Of a stretch of DNA of 64,000 bases, positions 13,352-41,471 are shown piece after piece. This DNA comes from a virus. Lineage: Duplodnaviria; Caudoviricetes. The translations under genes and the position numbers were made by a program. The stretch spans positions 40,988 to 104,987 of the IMG/VR virus record IMGVR_UViG_3300038524_000024. The stretch is one strand, 5' to 3'. How positions within the stretch are numbered: position 1 is the first letter of the stretch; each line of letters opens with the position of its first letter. The notes beneath the pieces are model-generated. The model did no database searches. It had not been told where the DNA came from and was given only the letters and a program-made list of their open reading frames with translations.

Positions 13352-13427
13352 AGAACCTCACTTTCTTTTAGGTAGAATAGAAATGCTTTTGACACTTCTA
13401 TTCTACCAATAAATTATGTTTAATATC

Positions 13428-14231: not shown

Positions 14232-14911
14232 TATAACTCCATTTCTTTTTGACTTTCATCAAAAATTTGTAATTTTTTTAATTTGTTTTTTCTTCCTCGT
14301 TCAACAGAAGCCAAACCTATTTTTGTTTTTGCTTCTTCCGTATGCTTTCTTCCAGTTGCAGCTTTACGAAATTTTTCTGTTGTTTCTTCAGAAAAAGGAT
14401 TTTTAATCCCTTTGTTCCAAGGAACATTGCCTTTTTTAAAAGTGCCAACCGGATGTTTCCCTTTATTGCCCTCTGATATTTTTCGCTTATGCTCTTCAGA
14501 CAAAGCTATACCAACATGGAATTGTCTCAAAAACTCTTTTTGCTCATCAGACATTTTGTGTTTACTATTGGTTTCACCAATTTTCCTTTTGTGCTCGTCT
14601 GATAATTTCATTCCTTTATTTGGGCATAGAGCATCTATGGCAATATTATACTCTGGTTTATAATAATCTAAATAAATCTGTTCATAAAGTGTTGTATTTT
14701 CTCTATCACATATTAAAAGTATTGAGAAGCTAAACGATTCTTCTCCATACTTTTCCCATGCTCTTTGAAACGCAACATTATGACTTTTATGTAAATTTAG
14801 ATACCACCTATGTGTAATCCATCTTTCGTGTATATCAACAGAGCTACCAATATAAGAATGCCCGTTTACTTTATTTGTAATTTTATAAACGCCAGATATA
14901 ATGTCTCTCAT
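14231..14911 (-). CDS. GIY-YIG homing endonuclease with NUMOD3 repeats
   Basis: GVYKI..YIGSS, YNIA, LSDEHKRKI repeats. Confidence 0.92.
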   Translation of the reverse strand: MRDIISGVYKITNKVNGHSYIGSSVDIHERWITHRWYLNLHKSHNVAFQRAWEKYGEESFSFSILLICDRENTTLYEQIYLDYYKPEYNIAIDALCPNKGMKLSDEHKRKIGETNSKHKMSDEQKEFLRQFHVGIALSEEHKRKISEGNKGKHPVGTFKKGNVPWNKGIKNPFSEETTEKFRKAATGRKHTEEAKTKIGLASVERGRKNKLKKLQIFDESQKEMEL

Positions 14912-14915
14912 ATTA

Positions 14916-15001
14916 CCTCCTACAGTAACATCCTAATTTAAGTAGTGAGCGAAAGGCGTTTAGGATTACGCTCTTCGGGCTCGAGACCCTATTCGCTCAC
15001 T
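14916..15001 (-). ncRNA. Putative three-way-junction leader RNA upstream of GIY-YIG gene (copy 1)
   Basis: P1 AGUGAGCGAA/UUCGCUCACU; UA-GGGU..GCCC-GAAGA; P3 GCGU-AAUCCUAA-ACGC; loop complementary to downstream UUAGGAU and the RBS. Confidence 0.62.
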
Positions 15002-15005
15002 TATC

Positions 15006-15164
15006 TTATTTTTTATTTTGTGTTTTTATTTTGTTTAGCATTCGACGGTCAACCGGAATGCCCAGAGCAGTGAGCCGCGCGAACGTAGCTCCGGTAGAGA
15101 TTGCGCGTTGCCAGTCCATGCGCTTCTGGTATGAGCTTACGTCAATGCCAAAGGGGTAGGTCAT
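15006..15164 (-). pseudogene. Truncated GH25 lysozyme N-terminus
   Basis: AGGAG RBS; MTYPFGIDVSSYQKRMDWQRA...GATFA, then runs into AT-rich sequence and stops. Confidence 0.7.
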
Positions 15165-15201
15165 GCTTGCTCCTGCCATTGGCTTAGGTCGAGGATAGTG
15201 G

Positions 15202-15543
15202 TCATGCTTCGTCCGGCATGTCTGACCAGATTTCGTCACGCATCGCAATCAGCATCCGCGCCATTAACTTGAGCACGGTTTTCGCGCTGGCGATGTTGGT
15301 GACGTTGGCTTCGATGTAATTCACCGCCTCTGCTGGCGTGATTGTTTTGAGCGCGGTTGCCTTCGCCGCTTCGTCTTTCGCCAGCCTGCGCCTTAGTCGT
15401 GCAGGATAGACAATCTGCTCGTAAATCTCCCATTCTTCAGGTGTGAGCGTGCGGCTAAACTCGGCGTGATAGTTGCCAAGTCTTGTTTCAACAAGTGATG
15501 TTATCGGTATTCCTGCGTTTTGAAGTAGTGTTAGTTTATCCAT
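15202..15543 (-). CDS. Tail-fibre-associated small protein (chaperone-like)
   Basis: Directly follows fibre gene; GC-rich patch. Confidence 0.65.
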   Translation of the reverse strand: MDKLTLLQNAGIPITSLVETRLGNYHAEFSRTLTPEEWEIYEQIVYPARLRRRLAKDEAAKATALKTITPAEAVNYIEANVTNIASAKTVLKLMARMLIAMRDEIWSDMPDEA

Positions 15544-15544
15544 G

Positions 15545-17341
15545 TTATGCCGCCTCGTATGTGAATGTGAAAGAGACAGATCTGTCTACGTTGTTCTGCT
15601 CTGCGCCAGTCAGGAAGTCCCAATCAAGTTCTGTAATTACGAATTTAGACGCACTGGCAACTAAATATATTCCGCCCATTGACCAAGTGGAACCGTTATT
15701 ATAGCCAGCCGAGCCGGCATGCACATCATCATTATTCTTGGGCGGAACTGGTAAGGTTATTAATATCGGCTCCGCTCCTGCCCCAGCAGTTCCACCTTCG
15801 ACGTTCCCCCACTGCCCTGTGACAGTGACAAGTTTACCAACTTGACAATAGCGGTTGATAAAGCAGCGGGTGTACGTTGGCGCCGTGCCGCCTGATACTG
15901 ATAGCGTTGGCGTGTAGTTGAACCACTGGGGAAAGCCAACGGGCGATGTCTGATGACTGTAGAATGGCTGCGTCCACGTCTCATTAGCAAGCACGTGGTC
16001 GGTGTTCACGGCAACAGTCAGCACGGTGTCGGCGATGCTGACAACCGTGCCGTATCGCTGCGTTGAGCCGGTATTGGTTATCCATTTTAGCCGGTCACCT
16101 ACCGAGTAGACCGCTGCCGCGCCGCTCGAAACGTTGATGGTAGAGGCTGTTTTCCAAGAGAACGTGCCGGTAACAGGTATCCATCCGTTCTGATAAGAAA
16201 CGGGCATGAAATAGGTGGAGTCTAAGTTGTCAAGTTTGTCAGAATCAGCCGCTTTTCCGGTTGCTGCCAAATAATAGCTTGCTGATTGACCGTTCAGTTT
16301 ATCACTATCCACTGCTTGTGCGGCAACACCAAGATAGGTTGAGTCATGATTATGCGTAGACGTTGCAAAATAGTCGGTATTAAACCCATCAAATAAAATG
16401 CTATCCACTGCTTTTGCGGCAACACCAAGATAGGTTGAGTCATGATTATGCGTAGACGTTGCAAATGCTAAACTATCGAGTCCATCCAACAAATCGCTAT
16501 CAACAGCCTTACTTGTCGCAGGTAAATAATAAGATGGTAAATTGCCACCTAATTTTTCAGAATCGGGTGCGTAACTTGCCCATGACAATATTCCATCGCT
16601 AGCCCTAAAAACAAAATTTCCGGTAGCTAAAGGATTTGGAGTCGTTATACCAGAAACTCTACCATATGCGTCGATTGTTACACCGATATATGTGCCGGGC
16701 GTCAAACTCATTGTTGGCAGTATAAGATTATGACTACCATCAACGCCTAACATAGAACCTATATTAATGCCCTCACTAGCAATTTTACCATTATATAATG
16801 AAACTCCAGACTCATCAATAGTTTTATCATTGCTTACCATCAATAAATTACCGGCAGTGCTGTCACTAACAACGACCTGATTTGAAGTAACACCGCCCAT
16901 CATAATCCATACTCCATTTTGATATTCAAAAGTATAAATTTTATTTGCGATTAAATCACCAACAGTTAAATTAGTTGCCACGCCAAGAGGAGATAACTTT
17001 TGCAATGTTTTATTTCCACCAGAGTTTATATTCAATACGGCAGAATTTGTGTTAGATATATCCACGGAAAGTTGAATCTGTATTCCATTTGCCAACGTGC
17101 CTATATCGGAGCTTGTAGCTACATAGTTATTTTCCGTTGAGAAAGAACCATATATTCTAAAAAGCGTTCTAGCTAACTCCAAATCATCAATGCGAGAATC
17201 TGTTGATATGGCATATGCATCAATTTTGCTAAAAGCAGAAGAAACCGCATTTTTATTTATTGTATCTCTCCAAGTTTTTACGGTAGGGTCATCAAAGTCA
17301 TCATATACGTCTAGTTCCAACCTTGTTGTAATTGCACTCAT
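15545..17341 (-). CDS. Tail fibre / receptor-binding protein
   Basis: A.DSDxLDGxxSxxF and HNHD repeats; 51-bp DNA duplication 16319-16369 / 16415-16465; GC-rich C-terminal head. Confidence 0.8.
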   Translation of the reverse strand: MSAITTRLELDVYDDFDDPTVKTWRDTINKNAVSSAFSKIDAYAISTDSRIDDLELARTLFRIYGSFSTENNYVATSSDIGTLANGIQIQLSVDISNTNSAVLNINSGGNKTLQKLSPLGVATNLTVGDLIANKIYTFEYQNGVWIMMGGVTSNQVVVSDSTAGNLLMVSNDKTIDESGVSLYNGKIASEGINIGSMLGVDGSHNLILPTMSLTPGTYIGVTIDAYGRVSGITTPNPLATGNFVFRASDGILSWASYAPDSEKLGGNLPSYYLPATSKAVDSDLLDGLDSLAFATSTHNHDSTYLGVAAKAVDSILFDGFNTDYFATSTHNHDSTYLGVAAQAVDSDKLNGQSASYYLAATGKAADSDKLDNLDSTYFMPVSYQNGWIPVTGTFSWKTASTINVSSGAAAVYSVGDRLKWITNTGSTQRYGTVVSIADTVLTVAVNTDHVLANETWTQPFYSHQTSPVGFPQWFNYTPTLSVSGGTAPTYTRCFINRYCQVGKLVTVTGQWGNVEGGTAGAGAEPILITLPVPPKNNDDVHAGSAGYNNGSTWSMGGIYLVASASKFVITELDWDFLTGAEQNNVDRSVSFTFTYEAA

Positions 17342-17883
17342 AAGTATTCCTCACTTTCTTTAAAGTCCAAATCGCTTAATAATTTTGTATTCCAATAAGA
17401 GATTGGAAATGGTATTGGAACGGTACTATCATCATAATCCCAAGTTGATAAAACCCTCCAAAATCCAGCAGTAGCTTCCGCCCAAATACTAATAGTTCCG
17501 ATTTTGCTAATAAAATTCGCCAATAGTTGTTCATAAAATTGAGCAAAGATACTTGGTGGTAATACTCCCATTGATAAGGACAATGCTTCTTGAGAGGTCA
17601 AAGTTGCTATTATCTGAAAATTTTCCGCTAAAGGAAAAGGTAAATCAGAAAATTGCTCTAAAATGCCAGACATGGTTTCATCTATATAAAAAGCAAATCC
17701 CAATGGCACTGTACTTCTAAGCATCTCGTCTATTGTACGAACTAAAGTGTCGTCTACATCATATGTAAAGGGTATAGATATTCTAGCAAAAGCGCTGTCA
17801 ACCTTTGGAAATCCATCAATCAAAACATCAAAATTTTTTATAAGCGAAAGGATAACATCAAAATTTTTTTTAGATGTATCCAT
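17338..17883 (-). CDS. Hypothetical baseplate-region protein
   Basis: GGAG RBS, position in tail operon. Confidence 0.65.
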   Translation of the reverse strand: MDTSKKNFDVILSLIKNFDVLIDGFPKVDSAFARISIPFTYDVDDTLVRTIDEMLRSTVPLGFAFYIDETMSGILEQFSDLPFPLAENFQIIATLTSQEALSLSMGVLPPSIFAQFYEQLLANFISKIGTISIWAEATAGFWRVLSTWDYDDSTVPIPFPISYWNTKLLSDLDFKESEEYL

Positions 17884-17895
17884 ATTATAACTCCA

Positions 17896-18300
17896 TTAAA
17901 CATTTGTCATTTTGAACTTTAAAGCACTTGCAAGAAATACAAGAGTTGCACCAGATTGAACAATTCTTGTTGTTTGAAGCGCATCAAAATACCAAATATT
18001 TCCTCCGGTTGCTAAGTCTGATAGGAAAACATGGCTTATTGTACCCCAACTTCCAGTTGCTACCGGAAATGTTATAGAAGATAAATTTGATAATTCCCCG
18101 TTGGCAGCACTTGAAAAATATGCCTTTGTATTTAGAACTGCCACCCTCGCATAACTATTACCAACTGGTTCCGTTGCGCCAGTTCCAGTTGATGAAATGG
18201 TAGTGGTTGATAAACCAACATAATAATTTGATGGTAGCGTAATACCAGTTGCTCCAAATAAATTATCCAAAATCTTGTTAGAAGCATATACAGTAATCAT
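17896..18300 (-). CDS. Tail/baseplate accessory protein (single-domain paralog of 13428-14231)
   Basis: YYVGLST...EP.GNSYARV...ITFP.ATGSWG. Confidence 0.75.
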   Translation of the reverse strand: MITVYASNKILDNLFGATGITLPSNYYVGLSTTTISSTGTGATEPVGNSYARVAVLNTKAYFSSAANGELSNLSSITFPVATGSWGTISHVFLSDLATGGNIWYFDALQTTRIVQSGATLVFLASALKFKMTNV

Positions 18301-18318
18301 ATAAAATCAATCCTTTCT

Positions 18319-18723
18319 TTATTCTGGCAAATATAAGTCATAAGACTCTGAAGTGCCATAAAACATTTGAAAAATGGTCATTGTTCCCTGAAAAGGAATG
18401 AAATATCCACTTTGATAACCCTCTAGGACAAGTTGATATATAAATTTGCCATATAAACTTTGTGTGTCTTCCGCATTCATAGTTACGGCGATAACATTAT
18501 AAGGCTCTTCAGCAATTAATTGTCCTTCGATGTTTAATACTAATTTATCTAAATGCCCATAATGAGAGAGCTTAAAATTTGTAGACGTAGCACCAATCAT
18601 TGATACTGGTGTAATCATATCTAATTCATAAAAATGAAAATGATATTCTTGTTTTGACCCTCCCACAATCGCTAACGATGGTGCAGAACGCATTCCAACA
18701 CTAACAAAATCGCAATTATCCAT
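18319..18723 (-). CDS. Baseplate accessory protein, paralog of 18735-19106
   Basis: VGGSKQEYHFHFYE...ITPVS...EDT..LYGKFIYQ. Confidence 0.7.
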   Translation of the reverse strand: MDNCDFVSVGMRSAPSLAIVGGSKQEYHFHFYELDMITPVSMIGATSTNFKLSHYGHLDKLVLNIEGQLIAEEPYNVIAVTMNAEDTQSLYGKFIYQLVLEGYQSGYFIPFQGTMTIFQMFYGTSESYDLYLPE

Positions 18724-18734
18724 GGGTTACCTCA

Positions 18735-19106
18735 TTATGTTGAAGAGATTTGCTTATGAATATTAAGCAAACCCTGTATTGGTATAATAGTACCATAACT
18801 ACCAAAGAGAGATATTTGGTAAACAAACTTACCATAGAGTCCTAAAGTATCTTCGTCTAATAGCAATATTCGAATAGAATTGTATGGTGATTCATTTACT
18901 TTTTGCCCATTGACACTGAGTAAAACATTGTTTGGCTCTCCAAATTTTGTTATACTAAATATTATCGAAGTTGCCCAATCAATAGAAACCGGAGTAATCA
19001 AATCAGATTCATAGAAATGAAAAATGTATTCTTGTTGTGACCCACCTACAAAAGATATTTCTGGAATGTTATAAATATTATATTCACTAAATTCACAATC
19101 ATCCAT
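18735..19106 (-). CDS. Baseplate accessory protein
   Basis: VGGSQQEYIFHFYE...ITPVS...EDTLGLYGKFVYQ. Confidence 0.7.
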   Translation of the reverse strand: MDDCEFSEYNIYNIPEISFVGGSQQEYIFHFYESDLITPVSIDWATSIIFSITKFGEPNNVLLSVNGQKVNESPYNSIRILLLDEDTLGLYGKFVYQISLFGSYGTIIPIQGLLNIHKQISST

Positions 19107-19305
19107 CGGCTACCTCATTCAAGTTTTTTTGCTCGTCATCCTGTTCTTTGTTGTCTTCGGCAATTTGTTTCATAACGGAATCAAGTGTTAGTCCAGCATG
19201 GTATAAATAAGATACACTCTTACCTTTTACTTCTAATTCGGAAATATAATTACCAATGTTACTCAATTGTTGCAAACATGTTTCATTGATTTTATAAAAT
19301 TTCAT
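19099..19305 (-). CDS. Small hypothetical tail-region protein
   Basis: AAGGA RBS; ELEVKG motif; overlaps next gene. Confidence 0.6.
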   Translation of the reverse strand: MKFYKINETCLQQLSNIGNYISELEVKGKSVSYLYHAGLTLDSVMKQIAEDNKEQDDEQKNLNEVADG

Positions 19306-19325
19306 TTTAATTCAATCCTTTTAAA

Positions 19326-22300
19326 TTAACTAAGCGCGGTAATAATACCATCTACAACCGACATATTTATTTGACCACCAGCATAACTTCTAAAACTTCT
19401 ATTCGCAGTTACACTACTATGATAATGATAATAACTAGCATATGTGCTTCCGTGACTATGACTGGTAGGGGCATATCTTGTATCGTTTTGTGCTATGCTC
19501 CATATTTGATTTGAGGCGTCAGTACCATCTTTCCAAAGACCTCCTGTTATCAGTGTTCCGGTTCCTGTATTTATTCTAAGATAGTTTGCAGTCAAGAATG
19601 TTGTTCCGACAGAGCCTAATGATAAAGTGGTAGCAGATGTAACATTTCCTTCTCCTGAAAACCACAATCCGATACCAAGTCCGCTACCTGCCTCCCCAAT
19701 ACTCCCCCCGGGGAATACAAATCTTCCACCGGAAACACGATACCCACTTAAACTTCCTGCGGTAAATCCACCTAAACTATACCCAGTACCAGTATTGATT
19801 CTATCAACGGGAACAGGCGCATTAGTAATTTGGCTCCAATCAACCGCACCCAAAAGTCTTGTAGCACTTATTGTTCCGGTTGTACTAGTAATATCCCCGG
19901 TAAATGTTCCAGTCGCAGCAGATAATGACCCGCTGAATACACCACTTCCTTTAATGGTCAAAACACCATTCTCCCATTTTAGATAACTTGTATCGGTGGC
20001 ACTACCAAGATAAAAATTGCCAGCATTGTCCATATATGTTTTCCACGATGCTATGCCAGTCGTTGGATTTTTATATACATATCCTAACTTTTCATAATCA
20101 ATATGCAAACCTGTTTCGGTATTTCCAGCTTGAACATATCTTGGTTTGCTAGCAACACTGTCCCAAGCATATCCTGTAGACTGAGAAATATCGCCCGTGA
20201 ATATTCCACTACCTTTAATTTTTAAAGTGCTAGTCGCAGAAGTCCACGATAAATAGTTAGCATTGTTTTCAGCACCAAGATAAAAGTTACCAGCATTATC
20301 CATATATGTTTTCCAACCAACTGGAGCTTCATAATATCCTAAGCGGTCAGACGATATGTGTAATCCTTTCGTTGGAGCATCTTCATCTATAACATACAAT
20401 GGCTTTCCTGCTAAGGTATCCCAAGTTTCTGGCGGTGGTATTACGGGATATGGTGGCAAATCATAAATAGATGTGTGAGATATTCTTATGTTTCCATCCG
20501 AACCTATACTAAGTACTTCCGCCCCACCAGTCTTTTTGATTACAATACCAACTTCTGGATTTATATCAATTACATTTTTAGCATTAGATAATTCTAGGTT
20601 CATATTTTTTGCTTTTAAACCAGAGGCATCTACTAAAAATGTTGCCAATTCAGAATTAACATTGTTTTGAATTACTAGGCTATTACCAGCAATCATTCTT
20701 CCAACCAGCGCTTCGGCAACTACCCCATATAGATTTTGACCACCAAAATTTATTTCTCCCAGAGCCATTTTCACACTCTGCCAATTATTATTGGTAAAAG
20801 CTATTTGGTTGCTAGTGAGCCAAATTTGATTTGGTTCATATCCAGTTACTGTCTTTTGCCTTCCAATAAGCCCATTTGGTGTCAACGAAATTTCCTGGTC
20901 TTTGGTCGCCATTAGCGTTGTCAACGAAGCGTTTAACGCTTCGTCTATATACTGATTTACTGCTTGTTGACCACTTTCTACCCAATCGCTCCAGTCCCCA
21001 GCGCTATATTTTACCTGCGAAATTGTTCTATCGGCATCTGAATTGATATCTCCTAATTCAATTTCCGAATTAGCTAATCTCAGCCTATTACTCAATAAGA
21101 ATTTGAAGTCAGTTGGTACATCATAATTATAGTCAAATCCCAAAATTATGGGAACAAACAACGTATCGTTATTTCCATCTTCAAGTTGCACATATAAAGA
21201 GCTTCCAAGTGCTAACTGGTCAATAAAAGGTTGGAAATATTTTATAAATATAAAATTATGCAAATCAAGAGAAAATTCATATGATGGTTGTGATACCTTA
21301 TTAGAAATAATCACCCCTTGTGCATATAAATCTAAGGCCATTTGTTGTACTTGCTGTAACGTCATCATGTCTGTTTGCAAGAAGTTGCGATTATCATACG
21401 CACCAGCAAAAATAAAATTATTTAATTGAGCCAATTGCGCTATTGTAAAATTCGCCTCTATTTTGCAAGTGTTATTGATTACAACAAGTTCATTTTGCTT
21501 AGTGCCTATTTGCAGTTGTTTAGCCTCTATCTCGGCTTGTTTATTGTCTACGGCAAGTTGCGCAGCAATAACCGCATTTTGTTCAACCGACGTGTTAGTT
21601 TTACCAGAATCTATAGCTAACTTCAAAGTATTTTGTTTTATAAGCAACTGCGTTTGTAGATATTCAAGCCCTGTCGTTGTATTGGTACGCAAATCATATA
21701 TTTCTCGCTGATATGTCATTAGTTGTGTTAATTTAGTGGCATATGATGATTGATAACCTGCTATTTTTGTTTTCCAAGCATCAATAGCCGTAATTAGGTC
21801 GCTAGACATCCACTCAAGATTTTTATAGTAATCAAAATTATAAATAATGTCATCCCCGGTTGGATTTACCTGATTGATGGTTAAATCATCTTTACCATAT
21901 ACACTTAATGCAGTTATAATATTATCGGAATTTTCATCAATACTAACATTTTCTAGCAAATTTTCATAAGATAAATAAATATCAGTTTTTGTTATGGCAT
22001 TTGTCAATGCTTGTGCGTTGATTTTTTTGTTGAATGTATCAAATGTAAAAACACATTGATATGCTTGTTCCATTTCTTTCATTAAGAAAGTATAGACAGT
22101 CGTATCTTTTTCGTCAAAAGTTCTATATAGGTTATATAATGATGAATCAAGTGTTCCAAGAGACCATCCCGGCATATAAATAAGCAACTTATGCATCAAA
22201 CTGTTTGCTTGATTGGACGCATCATAAAATTTCCAAGTGCCTTTTATGTTTAATATTTTACGAAATGATAGTTCAAATTCTAATGATTTAGCTTCAACGT

Positions 22301-22589
22301 CTTTGTAAATCTTTGCTCCATCAGATTTTTCTATTACCTTAGTAATAATAAACATGCCAATATCTGGAATCTGTATTCTGCGCTTGCCAACAAGATATGA
22401 ATAATATGGCATAGCAGTACCATTAATAGTTTTTGGAGCAGAAAATTTAATAGTAGAAACCGCATTATATCTTAAACTTACTTGTCTATCGTAAATGCCA
22501 CCTATATTGAAAAGTTTAGTCCCGTCTGGATTGCATAATATATAATCTGGCACCTCATATTGTGAAAAAGAATCGAATTTTTGTATCAT
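19326..22589 (-). CDS. Tal / baseplate hub (prophage tail endopeptidase-like) protein
   Basis: Follows Dit; LCNPD, ITALSVYG..LTINQVNPTG, coiled coil, F.....W...KMALG, internal WKTYMDNAGNFYLG repeat. Confidence 0.8.
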   Translation of the reverse strand: MIQKFDSFSQYEVPDYILCNPDGTKLFNIGGIYDRQVSLRYNAVSTIKFSAPKTINGTAMPYYSYLVGKRRIQIPDIGMFIITKVIEKSDGAKIYKDVEAKSLEFELSFRKILNIKGTWKFYDASNQANSLMHKLLIYMPGWSLGTLDSSLYNLYRTFDEKDTTVYTFLMKEMEQAYQCVFTFDTFNKKINAQALTNAITKTDIYLSYENLLENVSIDENSDNIITALSVYGKDDLTINQVNPTGDDIIYNFDYYKNLEWMSSDLITAIDAWKTKIAGYQSSYATKLTQLMTYQREIYDLRTNTTTGLEYLQTQLLIKQNTLKLAIDSGKTNTSVEQNAVIAAQLAVDNKQAEIEAKQLQIGTKQNELVVINNTCKIEANFTIAQLAQLNNFIFAGAYDNRNFLQTDMMTLQQVQQMALDLYAQGVIISNKVSQPSYEFSLDLHNFIFIKYFQPFIDQLALGSSLYVQLEDGNNDTLFVPIILGFDYNYDVPTDFKFLLSNRLRLANSEIELGDINSDADRTISQVKYSAGDWSDWVESGQQAVNQYIDEALNASLTTLMATKDQEISLTPNGLIGRQKTVTGYEPNQIWLTSNQIAFTNNNWQSVKMALGEINFGGQNLYGVVAEALVGRMIAGNSLVIQNNVNSELATFLVDASGLKAKNMNLELSNAKNVIDINPEVGIVIKKTGGAEVLSIGSDGNIRISHTSIYDLPPYPVIPPPETWDTLAGKPLYVIDEDAPTKGLHISSDRLGYYEAPVGWKTYMDNAGNFYLGAENNANYLSWTSATSTLKIKGSGIFTGDISQSTGYAWDSVASKPRYVQAGNTETGLHIDYEKLGYVYKNPTTGIASWKTYMDNAGNFYLGSATDTSYLKWENGVLTIKGSGVFSGSLSAATGTFTGDITSTTGTISATRLLGAVDWSQITNAPVPVDRINTGTGYSLGGFTAGSLSGYRVSGGRFVFPGGSIGEAGSGLGIGLWFSGEGNVTSATTLSLGSVGTTFLTANYLRINTGTGTLITGGLWKDGTDASNQIWSIAQNDTRYAPTSHSHGSTYASYYHYHSSVTANRSFRSYAGGQINMSVVDGIITALS

Positions 22590-22596
22590 CTTATTA

Positions 22597-23394
22597 CTAT
22601 GCTCCTATTTTTCGTGAGAACTGATATACCATTATAAAGTCTTGAAATCTACCATAAAGATTTATGATGTTCTCACCCGGCAATAGTCTTAACCAATTGC
22701 TACTAAAATATTGCATTAACTTTCGGTTTTGGTTTGACGTAATTATTTTGTTAATATTGTCTATTGTAACAACCTCATCAACCAATAGTCCTCCAGTAAA
22801 GGAAAGCAAACGACTTGGCTCTGCTAAATTTTTTATCACTAAGCCCGTTGAACTTTTTGATTTAAATCGTACTACCGGGTATACATACCCGTCTTCAGCA
22901 CTATCATTATAAATTGCCGGTAGGTTTACATTAACAGTGTTGGACAAATGACCAACATGCGTAGCATATTTTGGCAAGCTCCATCCAAATCCAGAATCAC
23001 AATGAGCAGTGTATCTTATGGCATACAAGAAATTCCCAACATATATAGGAGTAGCATTTATAAAAATTACGTTGAAATAAGTGTCAACCATATCTCCTTG
23101 AACAATTTGTAATTTTTTATATGAGCTTCTACCCAACATCCACCTATTGATAGAATCAAAGTCAATAGCGGTTCGTTTGTTGCAATCTCCAACTGTAAAT
23201 TCAAATTCTAGCGAGGTATGATGAACTCTTTTATAAAAGTATGGTTTAGTTCTATGGATTTGATACTCCTCTATAATTGTTGATGCACCAGCAGACATAC
23301 CTTCTTGTAAGCCTGTTTCAAAATTAATAATTTGCAAACCATATTCCTCTGATGGGACACCATCATAAATAAAAGTAGAACCGTAGAAAGCCAT
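22597..23394 (-). CDS. Distal tail protein (Dit)
   Basis: MAFYGSTFIYDGVPSEEYGL, WLRLLPGEN; directly downstream of tape measure. Confidence 0.8.
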   Translation of the reverse strand: MAFYGSTFIYDGVPSEEYGLQIINFETGLQEGMSAGASTIIEEYQIHRTKPYFYKRVHHTSLEFEFTVGDCNKRTAIDFDSINRWMLGRSSYKKLQIVQGDMVDTYFNVIFINATPIYVGNFLYAIRYTAHCDSGFGWSLPKYATHVGHLSNTVNVNLPAIYNDSAEDGYVYPVVRFKSKSSTGLVIKNLAEPSRLLSFTGGLLVDEVVTIDNINKIITSNQNRKLMQYFSSNWLRLLPGENIINLYGRFQDFIMVYQFSRKIGA

Positions 23395-23452
23395 AGCCCT
23401 CCTTTCAATTGTTGGGTGAGCCATTATATTAACTGGCTCACCCTTAATTAGA

Positions 23453-26400
23453 TTAAATTGTATTAAAGTTACTAGAAGACCGCAATCCAGCGTTGTCCCT
23501 AATAGACATAATAGCCTTAGAGACAGCTCTCTCTAAGTCCGGCAAAACTGAGTGGTCTAAATTTCCAGAAACAGGTATGGTTATATCAACTTTAATATCT
23601 CCGGTTTGTTTTCTACCATTGTCGACTAGACTTGGTAAGGTGTTCTTTATGAAGTTATGTGCTTGCTCTTTTGTTGTAACAACTTCACCTTTTAGTAATT
23701 TTGCAAATACCTCTTGCTCAGGTATCTGCGGCAGTTCACCAACAATACCACCAGAGTGATACATTAGTGCTGGAATATTACGTCCACCGCCACCCATAGT
23801 TAGAACAATATCTGCCCCAAGAGCATTTAAGTCTGCAACATGAGCTAAGGCTTGTGCAAGTGTCATGGCTTGTGATATAGCATGGGCAGTCTTTGTTGTA
23901 AGACTATCTATAGCATTTCCAGCATTACTAGCCATCCCGGAAATAGCACTTCCAGCCGAACTAGCAAAATTTTGAACAGCAGTAGCGCCTTGCATTCCAA
24001 AAGTTTCAATCCAAGCAATTGCGCCCTTCCAAGCGTCAACTACGTCTGTAGAAATTCCACTTCCATAAGTCATATTCCATTCCATCAATTCGTCGTAAAA
24101 TTCTTTTGTTCTATCGTGAATTAATGCTTGGGCTTCTTGAACAATTAGCCCTTCTTCTTCCAAGTACTTATCTAATGCATCTAACTTTGAATTAATATTT
24201 TCAGTAAATAGTTCTAATTCTATGTCTAATGCATCTTCTTGTGCTTGAATTCGTTGGTCAAATTGTTCGTCTTCCAATTCAGTTTTAGCATCGGCAAGTT
24301 GTTCCTCTAACGCTAACCTTCTTGCAATGCCTTCTTGCGAAGTGTCAAATTGTATTTGAGCAAGTTCTGCTTCGAGGTTTACAATTGTATTTGTTCGCTT
24401 GCTAATTTCCTTCGTGTCAGAACGCTGTTTCTTTTGTATGTCTAGTTCTTCTTTTTTTGCTTTGATAAGCTTCTTATACGCGTCTAATTCCTCTTTGAGT
24501 GCATCTTTAGCACGTTTAGCTCTATCTTTCAACATAGCAACGGTCATTTTTAATAAATCTTGATATGATTTTTCTGCTTCTGACCTTGCTTTAGCTTCCG
24601 CTTCTGCAGCTTCCTGTTCTGGTGTTTTTCCACCGCCTCCACCGCCACCCCCATCAGGTTGCGTAGGTGGTTTATATCCACCCCCACCAGACCATATATC
24701 GTTACCAAAATTAGGTGGTGTCATTGATTGTGGATTGAATATTGTTGAAAGATTATTTCCCAAATTAGACAGTTCCTCTGTGCCAATGGTTGCCCCACCA
24801 GACATTGAAATATTTGGTACTTGTATTGGGAAACTATCTACCTTAAATATTTGTCCAAAAAATTTTGGTAGCGGCCAGTTTATAGTTGAGAAACCATCTA
24901 CTTTTGCAGTAAATGACATTTTGAATGACGATATGACACTAGCTAAACTTGTCATAGCAGATTGAATTGCTTTGTTTTGGTTAGCCACGCTTTCATTAAC
25001 TCTAGCGGTCATTTGTGTGGCGAAGTTACTAAAATTGCCAACCCCGCCAGTTAAATAACCATATATGGCTTCCGCACTAGTCAATGCTTTTCCTGCACTA
25101 TCTGTAAATGCTAAACCACTTTGTTGAGAATAGTTCCATGCGGCTTCAGAAAGAGATTTATAATATGCAAGAGCACTTTCAGCACCGGTTTGGAACTGAC
25201 TAAACATATCGCCGGACATGACTGAATCATATCCCTGTCGCAGTAAGTCTGCTGTATCAGACATGTTTACAAGGTCTTGAGTTGATTGTTGAAGAGCTAC
25301 GCTATAACTAGCGTGAGATTCCGTCAAAGCTCGAACTTGTTCATCACTCAATCCAAGAGCGTCTTTATTTTCGATTATGGCGTTATACTGATTTTCAATC
25401 ATCTCAGTAGCACCAACGAGACCATCTATATAGTCGGTGATGGCTATGTCACCACTTTCGAACTCAGAATTAAGACTGTCTAATGCAACTAATCCGTTTG
25501 TGAATAATGTGGTAAAAAACCTTTGGGCGGAATCGGTGCTATCATCAAACATATTGATAATATCACGGTTTGCCGTAATTTCTGACAATGTATCAAAATA
25601 CGCTCCAACAGATATTTTTCCATCTTCAAAGTTTTTGTTTAAATCAACGATACGCTGACCAAACGACTCAAATGCTTCTTTTGCTTCGCCCTGCAATGAG
25701 CTAGCTAAACTCGCTACCAAAGATTCAAAACTCTTAAATTGGTCTGCTAGTGCATTTGCTTTTGGAGCGTTTGTTTCTCCCTCTAACATGGCGTTTAAAG
25801 CCTTGATAAGAGGATTATCTTTTCCAAATTCATTGATTAATTCTTGGCGAAATTCAGCACCAGCACTAACCCATGTTGAAAATAACTCTGAAGCAAATTC
25901 CTTAGCGACCTTTTCACTATCTTCGATAGCCTTTTCAGCATCACCTTCGCTTATTGCAAAATCTTGGAGCAATATGCTAAGAACATCTTCACCATCAGTA
26001 AGCCAGTCTTCGTAATTGAAAAGAGCATCTCTTAATGTTTTTTGTGTTTCAGTTAAGACTTCATCAGCCGTACCAGAAATATTGTACAACCATCCAAGCA
26101 AAGCCTGATTAGCTGTTTGCCCTTGTTTAGCACCACTCTCAACAATACCTTTGATTAATGAGGGAAGTTGCTCTGCGGCTTGCGCTACTTTGATTGCTTG
26201 TGTAAGTTTCTCATATTCTTTTATTTTTTCGGATATGGTTATCTTGAAACTTGCTTCTTCTTCGCCTGTAAGTTTGCCCTGTTCTCTGAGTAAGTCATTT
26301 ACCGTCTCTATGGCAATAGCTTCTTCTAAATACCAACCCATTTTCCCATAATGCCAGCCCTCATACTCTGGTATGAGTTGGTGCAAAATAGCGTATTGGT

Positions 26401-28951
26401 CATATAAAGCGCCCTCATCATCGGTAGTTAAAGAACCCTCTTTAAACTTAGCAAAAAGCTTAGTAATTTCATCAACTGCATTACCGGCATCGGCTAATTT
26501 AGAAGGAATATTTTCAACGCGAGTTATATATGCGTCTACAGCGGTTGTTGCTTCCTCAACCTTTTTTCTATGGGCTTCAGTTACTGCATTATATATTCCA
26601 TATGCGGTTCCAGCTACGGCAAGTATGATACCAATAGGTGCAAGCGCGCCCGCCAATCCCCCAGCCGCTGTTCCTGCCAATGTTAATTTAGCAGCTAATT
26701 CGGCAATTCTTGTTCCAAGCGCAGTAATTCCACTTGCAATACTAGTCGCATTTAAAGCTATAACCAAACCAATAATAGTAGTTAAAACAGGAATAAGTCC
26801 ACCTAAATTTGCACCTAGTTGTAATAATCCGGTTCCAATATCTAAAATAGTTTTTGTAACACCACTATTTAAAGTATTTAACCAAAGTTCTTCCCAAGTA
26901 GCCTTAAATTTTTGTTGCTTGGCTTCGACAGATTCAAGATAAATTCCATACCTGTCCTGCGCCAATCCAGCCGCATTGGTGGTCATAATTTCTGCTTGTT
27001 TTACTTTATCATAATTTTCTAATAAAATAAGCAAACGTTCACGTTGTCTTACACCAGCAATTGTTGATGCAATTTCAGATTTAGCAACACTGCCAAATTC
27101 TTTCCATCGACCAGCAACATCATCTAATACATCACTTAAATCTTTAAATTCACCAACAGAGTCTCTAAGTGTAATATTATATTTAGTAAGAACCTGTTCA
27201 ACATTAGAAATATTCTCGCCTTCTTCATCAGTATCAGCACCAATTTTTACTGCTTGCATACGTGCAAAAATAGTTTTAAAAGATTCACCGATTGATTCGG
27301 CACTTTGACGAGAGACAGAACTAACAACTGTAACCATACTGGCTAATTCTTCTAGGCTAATTCCAGCAAGCCGAGCGGAAACCGATGAGCGCTGAAGCGC
27401 TTTTGCAATTTCGGCAACGCTAGTAGCATAATTATTATCAAGTTGAACTAACTTATCAAGAACGCCTATCATATCGCCAGACTCTAAATTAAAGCCATTC
27501 ATAATAGATGTTAAGTATTCAGTTGATTGTGCGGCATCCATGTTAGCAAGCTTTGCTTGCATAGTAGATACTCGAATTAGTTCTGCTGTTTCTGCTTGTG
27601 ATTTACCTTGTCTGATAAACTCAAGACTTCCACGAGCAACTTCCTGCGTTGTTGTTCCAAGTTCTTTTGCTAATGAGTTATATTCATGAGCCAAATTTGC
27701 GGTTTCTTCTGCGGTAGCACCACTAACAATTCTTACGTTGGTAAGATGTTCATCTAATTCATTGATAAATGATATACCTTGTTTAAGTTGATTTAATGAA
27801 CCATAAACAAGACCCATGGCAAGAGACCATGAAATGGTTCTACTGATAGCTACACCAATTTGGGATACAAAAGTTTGGGTGTCTTTGCCCAATCCCTTGA
27901 ATTCTGTTCCTGCTAATTGAGTAGATTCAGAAAGCTTATTGAGCGAAGCTTCCTGTTCTTTGGTCATGGGTATACCCTGACCCTTTACTTGATTTGAAAG
28001 TGCTTCCTCGGCTTGCAAAAGAGCCTTACTTTGTATTACTGCCTCTCGTACTGCTGGAACTGATTGAGAACGTGTTTCAGCAAGTTTCTCAAGATTTGAT
28101 GCTTGACTCTTAGTAGAATCAAGTAGTTTTTTTTGTCGCTCTAATTCGGTATTAAGCTCTTTTTGTGTCTTAGTTGTAGACTTAGCCCTTGTCGTCATTA
28201 TTTCTAAGTATGCGCTACTTTCTTTAGTAAGTAACTGGGAATCCGGAGTAGAAAGAGACGACTTTGCCGAATCTATAGACCTTTGTAAATCATCTGCAAT
28301 TTTTTGAGCACGTTGAGTTGCTTCAGATGCCGGATTAGAAACTTTTAATACAGCATTCATTTCGGCAACAACTTTTTGTGATTTCTCTAAGATAGCAAGT
28401 TGTTCTTTTTGCTTCTTTATATTATCTTCAGTGTATCTAGCTTTTTGTTGTACTAATTCTCCCTCGCTATTAACTAAATAGTTTATGGAACGAGCTTTAT
28501 TCTCTAAGTCTGTATATTGAGCAACCACTCTTGTAATTATGTTTTCACCATTGGCTTCAACAGTAATTCTAGCTTGTGCCCCTCTTGTTGCTTCGTTTAC
28601 TCTTTGAACAATTTTTTCATATTGTGCTAATAACACAGAATTACTACGAATTTGTTCTTCGGTAACAGGGGCACTATTACTACCAGACGGTGTTATACTA
28701 GGAGCGGTTCTTGTGGTGCTTCCACCGCCAGTTCCCACTAAATTTACATTAATAGCACCTAATTTATTTTCAACATACGACTTAAGTGAATTAATAGATT
28801 GTTCGCTAACTGTGAATTGAGTAATGTTTGCAGTAATTTTTACTGAAACATCTTTCATCTTATCAAGTTCTTTTTGTATATTTACAAGTGATGTAGTATC
28901 AAGTTTTCCACTAATTAAAATGGTATATTTATTATTATTATTATCAGCCAT
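23453..28951 (-). CDS. Tape measure protein (TP901-type core)
   Basis: About 1830 aa helical; ELDEHLTNVRIVSG, ATSVAEIAKAL, IGESFKTIFARM, C-terminal YHSGG. Confidence 0.93.
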   Translation of the reverse strand: MADNNNNKYTILISGKLDTTSLVNIQKELDKMKDVSVKITANITQFTVSEQSINSLKSYVENKLGAINVNLVGTGGGSTTRTAPSITPSGSNSAPVTEEQIRSNSVLLAQYEKIVQRVNEATRGAQARITVEANGENIITRVVAQYTDLENKARSINYLVNSEGELVQQKARYTEDNIKKQKEQLAILEKSQKVVAEMNAVLKVSNPASEATQRAQKIADDLQRSIDSAKSSLSTPDSQLLTKESSAYLEIMTTRAKSTTKTQKELNTELERQKKLLDSTKSQASNLEKLAETRSQSVPAVREAVIQSKALLQAEEALSNQVKGQGIPMTKEQEASLNKLSESTQLAGTEFKGLGKDTQTFVSQIGVAISRTISWSLAMGLVYGSLNQLKQGISFINELDEHLTNVRIVSGATAEETANLAHEYNSLAKELGTTTQEVARGSLEFIRQGKSQAETAELIRVSTMQAKLANMDAAQSTEYLTSIMNGFNLESGDMIGVLDKLVQLDNNYATSVAEIAKALQRSSVSARLAGISLEELASMVTVVSSVSRQSAESIGESFKTIFARMQAVKIGADTDEEGENISNVEQVLTKYNITLRDSVGEFKDLSDVLDDVAGRWKEFGSVAKSEIASTIAGVRQRERLLILLENYDKVKQAEIMTTNAAGLAQDRYGIYLESVEAKQQKFKATWEELWLNTLNSGVTKTILDIGTGLLQLGANLGGLIPVLTTIIGLVIALNATSIASGITALGTRIAELAAKLTLAGTAAGGLAGALAPIGIILAVAGTAYGIYNAVTEAHRKKVEEATTAVDAYITRVENIPSKLADAGNAVDEITKLFAKFKEGSLTTDDEGALYDQYAILHQLIPEYEGWHYGKMGWYLEEAIAIETVNDLLREQGKLTGEEEASFKITISEKIKEYEKLTQAIKVAQAAEQLPSLIKGIVESGAKQGQTANQALLGWLYNISGTADEVLTETQKTLRDALFNYEDWLTDGEDVLSILLQDFAISEGDAEKAIEDSEKVAKEFASELFSTWVSAGAEFRQELINEFGKDNPLIKALNAMLEGETNAPKANALADQFKSFESLVASLASSLQGEAKEAFESFGQRIVDLNKNFEDGKISVGAYFDTLSEITANRDIINMFDDSTDSAQRFFTTLFTNGLVALDSLNSEFESGDIAITDYIDGLVGATEMIENQYNAIIENKDALGLSDEQVRALTESHASYSVALQQSTQDLVNMSDTADLLRQGYDSVMSGDMFSQFQTGAESALAYYKSLSEAAWNYSQQSGLAFTDSAGKALTSAEAIYGYLTGGVGNFSNFATQMTARVNESVANQNKAIQSAMTSLASVISSFKMSFTAKVDGFSTINWPLPKFFGQIFKVDSFPIQVPNISMSGGATIGTEELSNLGNNLSTIFNPQSMTPPNFGNDIWSGGGGYKPPTQPDGGGGGGGGKTPEQEAAEAEAKARSEAEKSYQDLLKMTVAMLKDRAKRAKDALKEELDAYKKLIKAKKEELDIQKKQRSDTKEISKRTNTIVNLEAELAQIQFDTSQEGIARRLALEEQLADAKTELEDEQFDQRIQAQEDALDIELELFTENINSKLDALDKYLEEEGLIVQEAQALIHDRTKEFYDELMEWNMTYGSGISTDVVDAWKGAIAWIETFGMQGATAVQNFASSAGSAISGMASNAGNAIDSLTTKTAHAISQAMTLAQALAHVADLNALGADIVLTMGGGGRNIPALMYHSGGIVGELPQIPEQEVFAKLLKGEVVTTKEQAHNFIKNTLPSLVDNGRKQTGDIKVDITIPVSGNLDHSVLPDLERAVSKAIMSIRDNAGLRSSSNFNTI

Positions 28952-28988
28952 CCACAAATCCTCCTTTCAGTTACACTACCCGTATAAA

Positions 28989-29993
28989 TTAGTTATTTTC
29001 AATGTTGACGCCAAAAACCTCATTCATAACTGAAAGTTTATCGTCTTTTAAATATCCTTCTGTAGTATCAACCTTTTCGTGGTTAGCTATACTTTTCAAA
29101 ATCGTCAAATCTAATTTACCAAGATTTTTTCTAACACAAATGTAATGCGTACCGTCAGCCATATTCTGCAATGCAGAATGACGCATAGAGTGAACATTAA
29201 ATTTTGTTTCTTTTCCCTCTACTTCAGTAAAAACATTCCTGATTTCCATAAACATTCTATATATCTTATTGGCATTGGCTTGTTGTTTCTTTCCATAAGC
29301 ATGATAAACCCATAAGCTATCAAACTCATCGTGTCCTCTTTGTTCAAGCCAAAGCCTAGCACATTTCTTTGTTTCTTCAAAATAAATCAAATTGAAAACT
29401 TTTCTTCGTTTTCCAATGACCTTATTGGTATAACTTATAGCATCATCATAAAAACCATGTTTTAACACCTGTGCAATTTCATTTTTACGAGCGGCAGAAT
29501 CATATGCAAGCATAAGCAATGTTGCTAATTGATATTCTTCACGTCTGATAAGTTCTTCTTCAAGCCGCAATACTTGCACATCAGACAAGAAAAATATTTC
29601 TCTTACTGGCTCTCTTTGTAGCCCTTTTATTTTTCTAGCTATATCGTTGGAATAATGCAATTCTTCGTCTTCTTCACAATAATTATATAATGATTGCATA
29701 GAAGACCATAACCTATTATGCCTAGCTACAGAAACCCCACATTCTTCGGTTAGCCAAATAGAGTAAGTTTTTAATTCTCTTCTAGATAATTGCAATATGC
29801 TCTTATTATTACAATTTCTATATACATATATAAGAAATATGCGCATATCGTTATAATATTGTTTTATAGTTCCAACAGCACGTCTTCGCTGTCTAAGTTC
29901 AAGTATAAAATCATCTAATACAATTTTATTCTCTAGTAAGACAGCATCCCAATCTTCTTGGTTGTAAACACTGTTATAAACTCCCTTAGTCAT
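28989..29993 (-). CDS. Tyrosine recombinase (YomM-like position)
   Basis: SAARKNE (R), GKRRK (K), HSMRH, NHE, GY catalytic residues. Confidence 0.88.
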   Translation of the reverse strand: MTKGVYNSVYNQEDWDAVLLENKIVLDDFILELRQRRRAVGTIKQYYNDMRIFLIYVYRNCNNKSILQLSRRELKTYSIWLTEECGVSVARHNRLWSSMQSLYNYCEEDEELHYSNDIARKIKGLQREPVREIFFLSDVQVLRLEEELIRREEYQLATLLMLAYDSAARKNEIAQVLKHGFYDDAISYTNKVIGKRRKVFNLIYFEETKKCARLWLEQRGHDEFDSLWVYHAYGKKQQANANKIYRMFMEIRNVFTEVEGKETKFNVHSMRHSALQNMADGTHYICVRKNLGKLDLTILKSIANHEKVDTTEGYLKDDKLSVMNEVFGVNIENN

Positions 29994-30004
29994 ACTTCCT
30001 CCGT

Positions 30005-30463
30005 TCAATCAATACGTACAAGTATTTCAGTTCTTGGACGGTCTTTGTCGTAATCTATTTTTAATGTTAAGCTATGTATGTGCTTATAATCATCGTCTAC
30101 AATGAATCCTGCTTCTACCAAACCATCAATTAAAAACTTTGGTGACATATTATCAACGTCTGCACGGATTTTGGTTTTGAGATATGAAGTACATTCCATT
30201 TTACAACCCTGAATTTTTAATCCAGATAATCCTTCGTTCTCTACAAACCATACGATAAATTCTTTCCACTTACCTTTTAGCGCATTCATTTCTGGTCTGC
30301 GCATCACAAACCAAGCATTTATAGAAGGATGTGTTGGTCTATCAATAGGTGGTACCTTTCTTTTTGGATACCTAGAAAAGTAAAAATTATTATAATCATT
30401 TAATGTGTTTTCATCTATTACTAGCTTAATGGTATCCCCCGACTTATATTGTTGATTAGTCAT
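30005..30463 (-). CDS. RusA-like Holliday junction resolvase
   Basis: PSIN, RADVDN...KFLIDGLVEAGFIVDDD, PRTEI. Confidence 0.8.
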   Translation of the reverse strand: MTNQQYKSGDTIKLVIDENTLNDYNNFYFSRYPKRKVPPIDRPTHPSINAWFVMRRPEMNALKGKWKEFIVWFVENEGLSGLKIQGCKMECTSYLKTKIRADVDNMSPKFLIDGLVEAGFIVDDDYKHIHSLTLKIDYDKDRPRTEILVRID

Positions 30464-31181
30464 TTTGAGCCTCTCGTTTGAGCGCCCAACGCTTTTTAGC
30501 CGCTATACTCATTTTTTCGCGTGTTTTATCAGACGCAATACGCCCACGCATTTTTGCGAGGACTTCTTCTGTATACTTATGTCCAAGAGCGTTAGTATTG
30601 CCTTTGCTTGCCTCAGACAGTCTTGCACGAACTTTTTCTGATACAATGTGCCCAAGAGCATTTGTATTACCTTTACCAGATTCACTAATTTTTTGTTTGG
30701 ATTCTTCGGTGTGATATTTCCCTATATTTACTTCTCTGATTTTTTGTTTGGATTCTTCGGTGTGATGCTTCCCCATATTGGCTTTTCCGATTTTTTGTTT
30801 TGATTCTTCGGTATGGTGCTTACCAAAATTGTGATGGTTCTTACCAGACATCTTTGCAAGAGATTCGGCGGTATGATGTCTTCCCTGCATTGGAGCGAGT
30901 GCGTCTTCTGAACTGTTATATGCGGGACGTAACAACTTTATAAGCCCATCTTCAAGGTACAATTTGTGAGCAACATCACATAACAGTAATATGCTAAACT
31001 CAAATGCTTGTTCACCGTACTTATTCCAAGCATTTTGAAAATGTGTGTTTCCACGTAGGTTTTTACGTAATTCATAGCGATGACTATTCCATCGCCCACG
31101 TATATCACATGAGCTTCCAAGATAATAATCTCCAGTTATAGTATTCAAAATCTTATAAACTCCACAAATTTTTGCAATCAT
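30456..31181 (-). CDS. GIY-YIG homing endonuclease with NUMOD3 repeats
   Basis: GVYKI..YLGSS, AYN, HTEESKQKI repeats (51-bp DNA period); AGGAGG RBS before ATG 31181. Confidence 0.92.
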   Translation of the reverse strand: MIAKICGVYKILNTITGDYYLGSSCDIRGRWNSHRYELRKNLRGNTHFQNAWNKYGEQAFEFSILLLCDVAHKLYLEDGLIKLLRPAYNSSEDALAPMQGRHHTAESLAKMSGKNHHNFGKHHTEESKQKIGKANMGKHHTEESKQKIREVNIGKYHTEESKQKISESGKGNTNALGHIVSEKVRARLSEASKGNTNALGHKYTEEVLAKMRGRIASDKTREKMSIAAKKRWALKREAQND

Positions 31182-31186
31182 TTTTG

Positions 31187-31273
31187 CCTCCTGTGGCAAC
31201 TCCCGAATTAATGAAGAACGGAAAGGACATTTCAGGAAGTATGTCTTTTCGGGAGCTACCCTATTCCGTTCTT
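31187..31273 (-). ncRNA. Putative three-way-junction leader RNA upstream of GIY-YIG gene (copy 2)
   Basis: P1 AAGAACGGAA/UUCCGUUCUU; UA-GGGUAGCUCCC-GAAAA; P3 GACAU-ACUUCCUGAA-AUGUC; loop complementary to CAGGAGG RBS. Confidence 0.65.
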
Positions 31274-40805: not shown

Positions 40806-41471
40806 CTATTCTGGCTTCTCAAATATCTGTTTGAATTGTTTAGCTCTTTCACTAACATCATACCCGACAAACTTTGAAATGCCATAAATTCGATTCATGT
40901 CAACTTCTTTACCTTCGTTGATGTTATCAATAAGCATACCAACTATGTGCTCTTTTTGAGCCGTAGTAGCATTCTCAAATAAATGCAAGTCCTCTGGAGC
41001 GTTTCCATGAACAATGCGCTCGATTTGTTCTTTGTTAAGAACATTTTTTGTAATCTGTTCAAGACCGTTTATTTTTGTAAATCTCGCATCGTTAACATAC
41101 AAGTATCCACGTTCAAAAAATTTGAACTGTTTTTGCACGATGCTTACGAGGTCACCATAAGGAATCTCCATTGATACACCAAAGCCACGAAAAGTATAAA
41201 CTCTCCCATTATTTTCTCCACCTGATGTAGTAACATTTACTATTCCGGGGGATAATGAAATCACTTCAATAGATTCGCCTAATTGAATTTTTTTATCTTC
41301 ATTTTTGCTTCCGCTAGTAATTTCTTTTTGAATAAATTGTTCTAGTGAATTCAATAGCTTTTGATAATCAGATGCAGGAATAACTACAACTTCATCTTTC
41401 TGTTCGATTTGTTCAGCATTGATTTGTTGTGCTTTATTCGCAGGAACCTTCCTTCGAGTTTGTGTAGCCAT
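40806..41471 (-). CDS. Conserved protein downstream of capsid gene
   Basis: Y.F..FG....IPYGDL, FFE.G motif; position. Confidence 0.7.
   Translation of the reverse strand: MATQTRRKVPANKAQQINAEQIEQKDEVVVIPASDYQKLLNSLEQFIQKEITSGSKNEDKKIQLGESIEVISLSPGIVNVTTSGGENNGRVYTFRGFGVSMEIPYGDLVSIVQKQFKFFERGYLYVNDARFTKINGLEQITKNVLNKEQIERIVHGNAPEDLHLFENATTAQKEHIVGMLIDNINEGKEVDMNRIYGISKFVGYDVSERAKQFKQIFEKPE

Follow-up and report, generated by a model that had tools for sequence, protein, structure and literature searches.

What do two small folded RNAs do in front of two nuclease genes of a phage? The window analysed here is a stretch of 64,000 nucleotides (positions 40,988 to 104,987) from the 105-kb IMG/VR virus record IMGVR_UViG_3300038524_000024, assigned to the Caudoviricetes, and it carries two intergenic elements on the minus strand, leader 1 (14944-15001) and leader 2 (31214-31273). 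By reading of the sequence, each lies on the coding strand directly 5' of a gene for a GIY-YIG endonuclease, as the original prediction had stated. That prediction described the elements as three-way-junction RNAs with covarying stems and with a loop complementary to the ribosome-binding site (RBS), and proposed that a C4/CI-like RNA or switch controls a toxic nuclease and travels with it as a cassette. We find that both elements belong to the catalogued RNA family int-alpA. They probably act in cis, as leaders that set translation initiation of the following gene by means of a loop directed against the Shine-Dalgarno (SD) sequence and of a decoy for that loop.

The three-way junction is present at both places exactly as it had been drawn. 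In leader 1, a P1 helix of 10 bp (15001-14992 with 14953-14944) leads through the joining segment J12, UA (14991-14990), into hairpin P2, GGG(U)..(G)CCC (14989-14977), which is followed by J23, GAAGA (14976-14972), by P3, GCGU/ACGC (14971-14968 with 14959-14956), closing the loop AAUCCUAA (14967-14960), and by J31, CU (14955-14954). Leader 2 has the same plan: P1, again of 10 bp (31273-31264 with 31223-31214), is joined by UA (31263-31262) to P2, GGG-UAGCU-CCC (GGG 31261-31259 with CCC 31253-31251), after which come J23, GAAAA (31250-31246), P3, GACAU/AUGUC (31245-31241 with 31230-31226) with the loop ACUUCCUGAA (31240-31231), and CU (31225-31224). P1 ends in GAA and the P3 loop is pyrimidine-rich in both. 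The leaders differ at five of the ten P1 positions and throughout P3, and every change is compensated, as the claim of covarying stems requires. When the isolated elements were folded and compared with shuffled sequences, z-scores of -4.1 (leader 1) and -2.5 (leader 2) were obtained. The minimum free energy (MFE) choice for leader 2 alone was an alternative hairpin, which we dropped for the structure supported by covariation. A covariance model, R1, built from 44 other copies with those of the window excluded, matched leader 1 at 52.3 bits and leader 2 at 53.7 bits and found no third copy in the window, the next best match scoring 10.5 bits. A blastn search of the copy 1 region against GenBank phages gave no match. 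Both folded RNAs are real and not a product of chance.

To which family do they belong? Short-range Rfam scans matched the int-alpA RNA, RF02996, to leader 1 at 43.0 bits (E 5.7e-8, 14931-14999) and to leader 2 at 45.2 bits (E 1.4e-8, 31202-31271), the curated gathering score being 35.8 bits, and both alignments span model positions 1-71 of 71; no other Rfam family came close in these scans. The leaders share with the family its three helices, the junction bases UA, GAAAA and CU (with GAAGA in leader 1), a CCU-containing P3 loop and a purine block in the 3' tail, to which UUAGGAU of leader 1 and UUCGGGAG of leader 2 align; both words are complementary to the P3 loop. The two leaders are new copies of int-alpA. 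Because both belong to this Rfam family, the motif is not a new one, and the match removes the novelty of the motif but not that of its function. A scan of the whole window at gathering thresholds with the default fast filters recovered neither copy; this miss is due to the speed filters and not to absence, since the short-range scans recovered both. The copy in the relative L130 was likewise missed in a seven-locus scan (55 kb, default cmscan filters). Default-filter cmscan thus misses copies that score above threshold, and the absence of int-alpA from large scans is therefore unreliable.

The window copies differ from the usual family members in several respects. Their P1 ends in GAA/UUC, where GGC/GCC is usual, and, instead of int or alpA, they head GIY-YIG genes that lie among the tail and lysis genes of a 105-kb phage of lytic appearance. 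As to the neighbourhood that gave the family its name, a tyrosine recombinase gene lies two genes 3' of copy 2, none lies near copy 1, and in the wider set described below an integrase is found among the downstream genes once in 42. Rfam files the family under the type "Gene; sRNA" (small RNA), whereas the anatomy of the window copies points to a cis leader. We take the motif to come from the survey of Weinberg et al. 2017. The main text of that survey (PMC5737381) does not name int-alpA; in the literature searched, the string "int-alpA" occurs only in a list or to denote a gene order, and "RF02996" was not found.

Is the anatomy of the window copies that of the family at large? A search of IMG/VR viral contigs with a pattern for the conserved core gave 119 stretches, among which a descriptor requiring P1, P2 and P3 retained 46 distinct copies. 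In the covariation alignment of 44 copies, 96.7% of the paired cells hold a pair, compared with 67% in shuffles, the covariation score is 0.62 compared with 0.13, and all 12 pairs of P1 and P3 vary on both sides. The same pattern applied to bacterial genomes returned four copies that R1 identifies as real among the 100 matching loci searched, the rest being mostly noise, and these four share the layout of the phage copies. In 42 of the 46 copies, P1 is followed after 19-68 nt by the start of an open reading frame (ORF) with an SD sequence on the same strand.

With what, then, does the P3 loop pair? Leader 1 has two partners for its loop. Site 1, the putative decoy, is UUAGGAU (14930-14936), 7 nt 3' of P1, and can form 7 bp with the loop word AUCCUAA in a pseudoknot (-7.4 kcal/mol); site 2, UAGGA (14922-14918; -5.6 kcal/mol), falls within the SD region, the SD itself being AGGAGG (14921-14916). 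In the MFE fold of 14900-15010, a hairpin, P4 (AUGUUACU / GGUAAUAU; 14910-14931), carries GUAGGA in its loop and has the A and U of the start codon ATG (14911-14909) paired in its stem. The final two bases of site 1 double as the bottom of P4, where they pair with this A and U, so that the pseudoknot and a full P4 are mutually exclusive there. In leader 2, site 1, UUCGGGAG (31200-31207), lies 6 nt 3' of P1, matches the loop segment CUUCCUGAA over 8 bp including two G-U pairs (-9.1 kcal/mol) and adjoins the predicted P4 (UUGCC / GGCAA, loop ACAGGA; 31184-31199). Its site 2, CAGGAGG (31193-31187), contains the SD sequence AGGAGG (31192-31187) and matches the loop word CUUCCUG over 7 bp (-10.7 kcal/mol), and the start codon follows at 31181-31179. 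Two G of the SD sequence are inside the P4 stem and most of the SD is in the P4 loop in both copies; P4 is weak (-3 to -6 kcal/mol).

This arrangement recurs throughout the family. A word complementary to the loop occurs 3-12 nt after P1 and is repeated before the start codon in nearly all 46 copies, and copies other than those of the window use unrelated words for it, such as UGACGA/GACGAGG, GUGAUA/GAUAGGG and UGGUGCA/GUGCA. In either region, the complementarity is far better for own than for foreign loops (0/10000 permutations for each region). When the set was strictly de-duplicated, leaving 21 loops of which no two share a 5-mer, both sites were present for the own loop in 14 of the 21, for 11% of foreign loops and for the reversed own loop in 1 of 21. 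The loop and its sites thus change together, and the complementarity between P3 loop and RBS that had been reported for two copies tracks each copy's own sequence family-wide; what the original prediction missed is the conserved partner of copy 2, UUCGGGAG at site 1, only the RBS having been listed there, and with it the main role of site 1 as a putative decoy in a pseudoknot, of which the word at the RBS is a repeat. Pairing with site 1 reaches the 3' end of the loop in 27 of 33 copies and leaves 1-3 free nt on the 5' side, which is the geometry predicted for an H-type pseudoknot stacked on P3. Of the two sites, the first prefers the 3' part of the loop, the second its 5' part. Between site 1 and P4 there are 0-2 nt in 30 of 34 copies, and the P4 loop contains site 2 in 28 of 37; the median spacing from the end of site 2 to the start codon is 7 nt, the position at which an SD sequence ends. 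The linker from P1 to site 1 is A/U-rich, with 4% G, and the two duplexes are about equally stable across the family (-5.8 and -5.4 kcal/mol).

Two further claims about pairing stood only in part. Copy-specific pairs of loop and target had been proposed, and the loop of copy 1 behaves accordingly, reaching -4.3 kcal/mol on the sites of copy 2 compared with the energies given above on its own; the loop of copy 2 does not, pairing with the SD region of copy 1 at -10.1 kcal/mol, close to the value on its own site 2. A second pairing in copy 2, in which GGUAGCUCCCGAA joins UUCGGGAGUUGCC over 13 nt, does exist, but it is not conserved, being absent from copy 1 and from the L173 orthologue. Among 42 copies, the longest complementarity between P2/J23 and the tail is 13 nt in copy 2, which is the maximum, the next value being 9 and the median 5. 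The pairing arises because the loop word UCCUGAA resembles UCCCGAA of P2/J23, and as a conserved switch it was rejected as an outlier.

We consider it rather probable that both elements are int-alpA-type cis leaders that set translation initiation of the gene that follows; this is the least elaborate way to account for a loop that has two exclusive partners specific to its copy, one of which is the RBS. In this mechanism, the three-way junction, with its helices P1, P2 and P3 and its fixed joining bases UA, GAARA and CU, would hold out the P3 loop, whose word is complementary to two downstream sites and could take one partner at a time. Site 1, separated from P1 by a few G-poor nucleotides, would pair with the 3' part of the loop as an H-type pseudoknot that stacks on P3 and adjoins P4, whereas site 2, a repeat of the word merged with the SD sequence, would sit exposed in the loop of P4, 5-9 nt 5' of the start codon. 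With the loop on the decoy the RBS would be free, and with the loop on site 2 it would be masked; the balance of the two states, or a trigger that shifts it, would determine the amount of nuclease made. Sites that occupy the 3' and the 5' part of the loop, respectively, are in the arrangement expected for exchange between states. It is from these features that we infer an alternation of the two pairings, its effect on translation and the direction of that effect.

Known systems offer parallels at several points. In T4-type homing endonuclease genes (I-TevI, I-TevII, I-TevIII, segB, mobE), RNA structure at the RBS restrains translation, in the form of simple hairpins that are bypassed by an internal late promoter (PMC2988022). 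The window leaders likewise place RNA structure at the RBS of a phage homing endonuclease gene, with G residues of the SD sequence partly in the P4 stem, but they differ in having a conserved junction with an anti-SD loop and a decoy site; the SD is not buried in a stable stem but lies mostly in the loop of the weak P4, and no internal promoter is predicted in either window copy. Similar in logic are translational riboswitch platforms and the pseudoknot/hairpin equilibrium of rpsO (PMC3985624), in which one segment has two exclusive partners and access to the RBS is decided by its choice, a pseudoknot being one of the two states. No known riboswitch class matched either leader region at E values up to 10 in Rfam, and the set of downstream genes is without a metabolic theme.

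Several points weigh against a cis leader of this kind. Since the search pattern fixed P2 and J23 and the filter demanded pairing in P1 and P3, the conservation of these parts is partly by construction; what counts independently of the selection is the variety of pair types, the match to the Rfam model and those features for which no selection was made, namely sites, geometry and context. Alternation is unproven, because the match of the loop to site 2 follows from its match to site 1 if both sites must be alike for another reason. The pseudoknot forms first and is aided by stacking, and it may always win, leaving the anti-SD pairing unused. G-U pairs are no commoner than A-C combinations at the two sites, in a strand test that is itself without discriminating power. 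On the coding strand, neither window leader has a predicted sigma70 promoter, be it 5' of the leader or inside it, and the only promoter match near copy 1 on that strand falls within the ORF. A literature search for int-alpA and RF02996 found no functional study.

Does the leader move with its gene? At the gp80 locus of related phages, L130, L131 and L132 carry both the leader and the nuclease gene, L134 and L135, whose gp80 is 82% identical, have neither, and L133 retains the first 20 nt of the leader, joined to the 3'-terminal 36 nt of the nuclease ORF. This scar (3946-4003) corresponds to a 716-nt deletion relative to L131 that runs from J23 of the leader to 36 nt before the stop codon. From this pattern we conclude that leader and gene are gained and lost together at the gp80 locus. 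At L131:2125-2916, the UAG of the leader junction serves as stop codon for a different upstream ORF, and P1 is broken. In L131 and L133, then, mosaic breakpoints fall inside the leader. The L173 orthologue of the gene behind leader 2 also has a leader, with a perfect TTGACA-17-TATAAT just before P1.

The proposed cassette of RNA and endonuclease is thus borne out insofar as leader and gene come and go together, but not as a bond to GIY-YIG genes or to nucleases. The 42 downstream products include 12 HNH or HNH_3 proteins and the two GIY-YIG proteins of the window, so that 14 of 42 are free-standing nucleases; four are of the DUF1376 replication type, and there is one each of an integrase, a Dam methylase, a DUF927 primase-like protein, an intein-bearing terminase and a glycosyltransferase, with many of the remainder small or of no assigned family. 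Given this range, the leader is a general head for add-on genes, enriched for nucleases and not limited to them; the same type of leader heads unrelated genes and is therefore an independent module. In 12 of 44 copies, the end of a sigma70-like promoter lies 3-12 nt 5' of P1, compared with 1.7% at control positions. The leader would accordingly be a self-contained module that moves with add-on genes, sometimes with its own promoter, and that would therefore make their expression independent of the place of insertion.

Outside the window, at L296:16387-16446 (plus strand), a divergent candidate precedes an HNH-like gene (16474-17217). It has a perfect extended sigma70 promoter, TTGACA-17-TGgTATAAT, ending 8 nt before P1; UA follows P1, the P3 loop is GCUCUG, and the partner words CAGAG and GCAGAGG stand before the start codon. 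R1 matches it at 15.1 bits (E 0.016), and its fold is no better than those of shuffled sequences. We regard it as a probable third, divergent leader.

Could the leader respond to a signal? A doubtful variant makes int-alpA a triggered switch, in which a signal loosens or locks the pseudoknot and so drives strand exchange of the anti-SD loop between decoy and RBS. The signal could be an ion or small molecule that binds to the conserved junction, a first ribosome that unwinds P4, or a ribosome that terminates 4-15 nt 5' of P1. About half of the copies have the stop codon of an upstream ORF at that distance; the spacing is close to the edge of the footprint of a terminating ribosome, and may reflect either coupling with translation upstream or insulation against it. 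If the leader were a triggered switch, mobile genes of very different phages would share a portable sensor or a one-shot translation device.

Need the RNA exchange partners at all? It is possible, though we think it unlikely, that the pseudoknotted junction and P4 form one fixed fold that never switches, with the likeness at site 2 as a by-product. Such an insulator or stabiliser would set the local structure of the RBS, with the SD sequence in a loop, and/or block decay or interference from upstream mRNA and ribosomes. The stacking of the pseudoknot on P3, its position next to P4 and the earlier transcription of site 1 all suit a static fold, as do the two working contexts of the leader, behind its own promoter (the 12 of 44 copies above) or shortly after an upstream stop (about half of the copies). 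A three-way junction whose P3 loop pairs 3' of P1 may also resemble exonuclease-resistant RNAs in topology. However, a static fold leaves unexplained why site 2 repeats the word of its own copy at the SD sequence, where own loops outdo foreign ones, and why the 5' part of the loop extends pairing into the SD.

A role in trans, of the kind known from C4 and CI, seems improbable to us. The C4 antisense RNA of phages P1 and P7 and the CI RNA of P4 are made in the same transcript as their target, have loops complementary to flanking sites, one of them at the RBS, and are released by processing as a free RNA of about 77 nt, which acts on the target. By analogy, a junction of about 60 nt could be cut out, for example in the A/U-rich, G-poor linker, and its loop could silence site 1 or site 2 in trans. 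The Rfam type of the family, the two downstream target words of the loop, which resemble the sites flanking c4 in P1, and the ability of the copy 2 loop to bind the SD region of copy 1 as well are consistent with this. The element is nonetheless always on the coding strand at a fixed short distance 5' of an ORF, each copy matches its own sites, and no terminator follows the junction of either window copy. The C4 model matched neither leader region at E values up to 10, the leaders have one interacting loop where C4 and CI have two, and the partner sites of the leaders are both downstream, no more than 40 nt away. The resemblance to C4/CI is consequently one of mechanism (a folded RNA whose loop is complementary to nearby sites, one at the RBS) and not of membership, and the claim of a C4/CI-like RNA does not hold in the latter sense. 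A self-cleaving ribozyme or a homing or recombination signal in the DNA, as the small junction, invariant joining bases and pseudoknot typical of small ribozymes or the breakpoints inside the L131 and L133 leaders might suggest, is very improbable, since no ribozyme family of Rfam, the hammerhead, twister, twister-sister, pistol and hatchet models included, matched either leader region at E values up to 10, the hammerhead core CUGANGA is absent between P1 and P2 of both leaders, stems that vary with pairing kept and a fixed orientation to the ORF point to RNA, and neither idea explains site 2.

What genes do the two leaders serve, and in what surroundings? Gene 1 (14231-14911, minus strand; 226 aa) matches PF01541 (E 6.6e-7) and PF07460 and has a GIY-YIG and a NUMOD3 domain; gene 2 (30456-31181, minus strand; 241 aa) matches the same two families, has GIY-YIG and three NUMOD3 and falls into homing endonuclease families of PHROG. 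The products are 38% identical in alignment. Both are homing endonuclease genes by their GIY-YIG domain, NUMOD-type motifs and free-standing position, and gene 1 is variably present among relatives. The surrounding region is the tail and lysis module. Along the minus strand, the order is endolysin (GH25 + M23 + SH3; 31301-33133), leader 2 with gene 2, a RusA-like gene (30005-30463), a tyrosine recombinase gene (28989-30008), the tape measure gene (23453-28957), tail proteins, a GH25 remnant, leader 1 with gene 1, a gp80-like fibre protein (13428-14231) and a third GIY-YIG gene. The tyrosine recombinase and RusA-like resolvase genes (28989-30463, minus strand) are in an unusual place between endolysin and tape measure, and this order is kept in L173.

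The ORF that stops 4 nt before leader 1 (15006-15248, minus strand) has 80 codons, covers only the first ~20 residues of a GH25 lysozyme domain (FGIDVSSYQ...; 52% identity with the start of the endolysin, 31301-33133) and is a probable gene remnant. A similar GH25 remnant is found in the relative L134, which lacks the homing endonuclease gene. The third GIY-YIG homing endonuclease gene (12653-13351, minus strand; 232 aa), directly after the gp80-like gene and ~40% identical to the other two, has no int-alpA leader by model R1. Before its SD sequence, at 13371-13407 (minus strand), stands a perfect 12-bp hairpin (GGUAGAAUAGAA / UUCUAUUCUACC) that contains GAAUAG..AAAAGC..UUUC and, from its sequence, could be a collapsed leader.

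The two window copies add no further principle beyond the family-wide anatomy. That anatomy gives int-alpA, an orphan Rfam entry filed as a small RNA, a concrete and testable role. If the leaders do act in cis on translation initiation, this would explain how the expression of selfish nuclease genes is kept within bounds in foreign contexts, would correct the classification of the family and would provide a small natural part for context-independent translational control.

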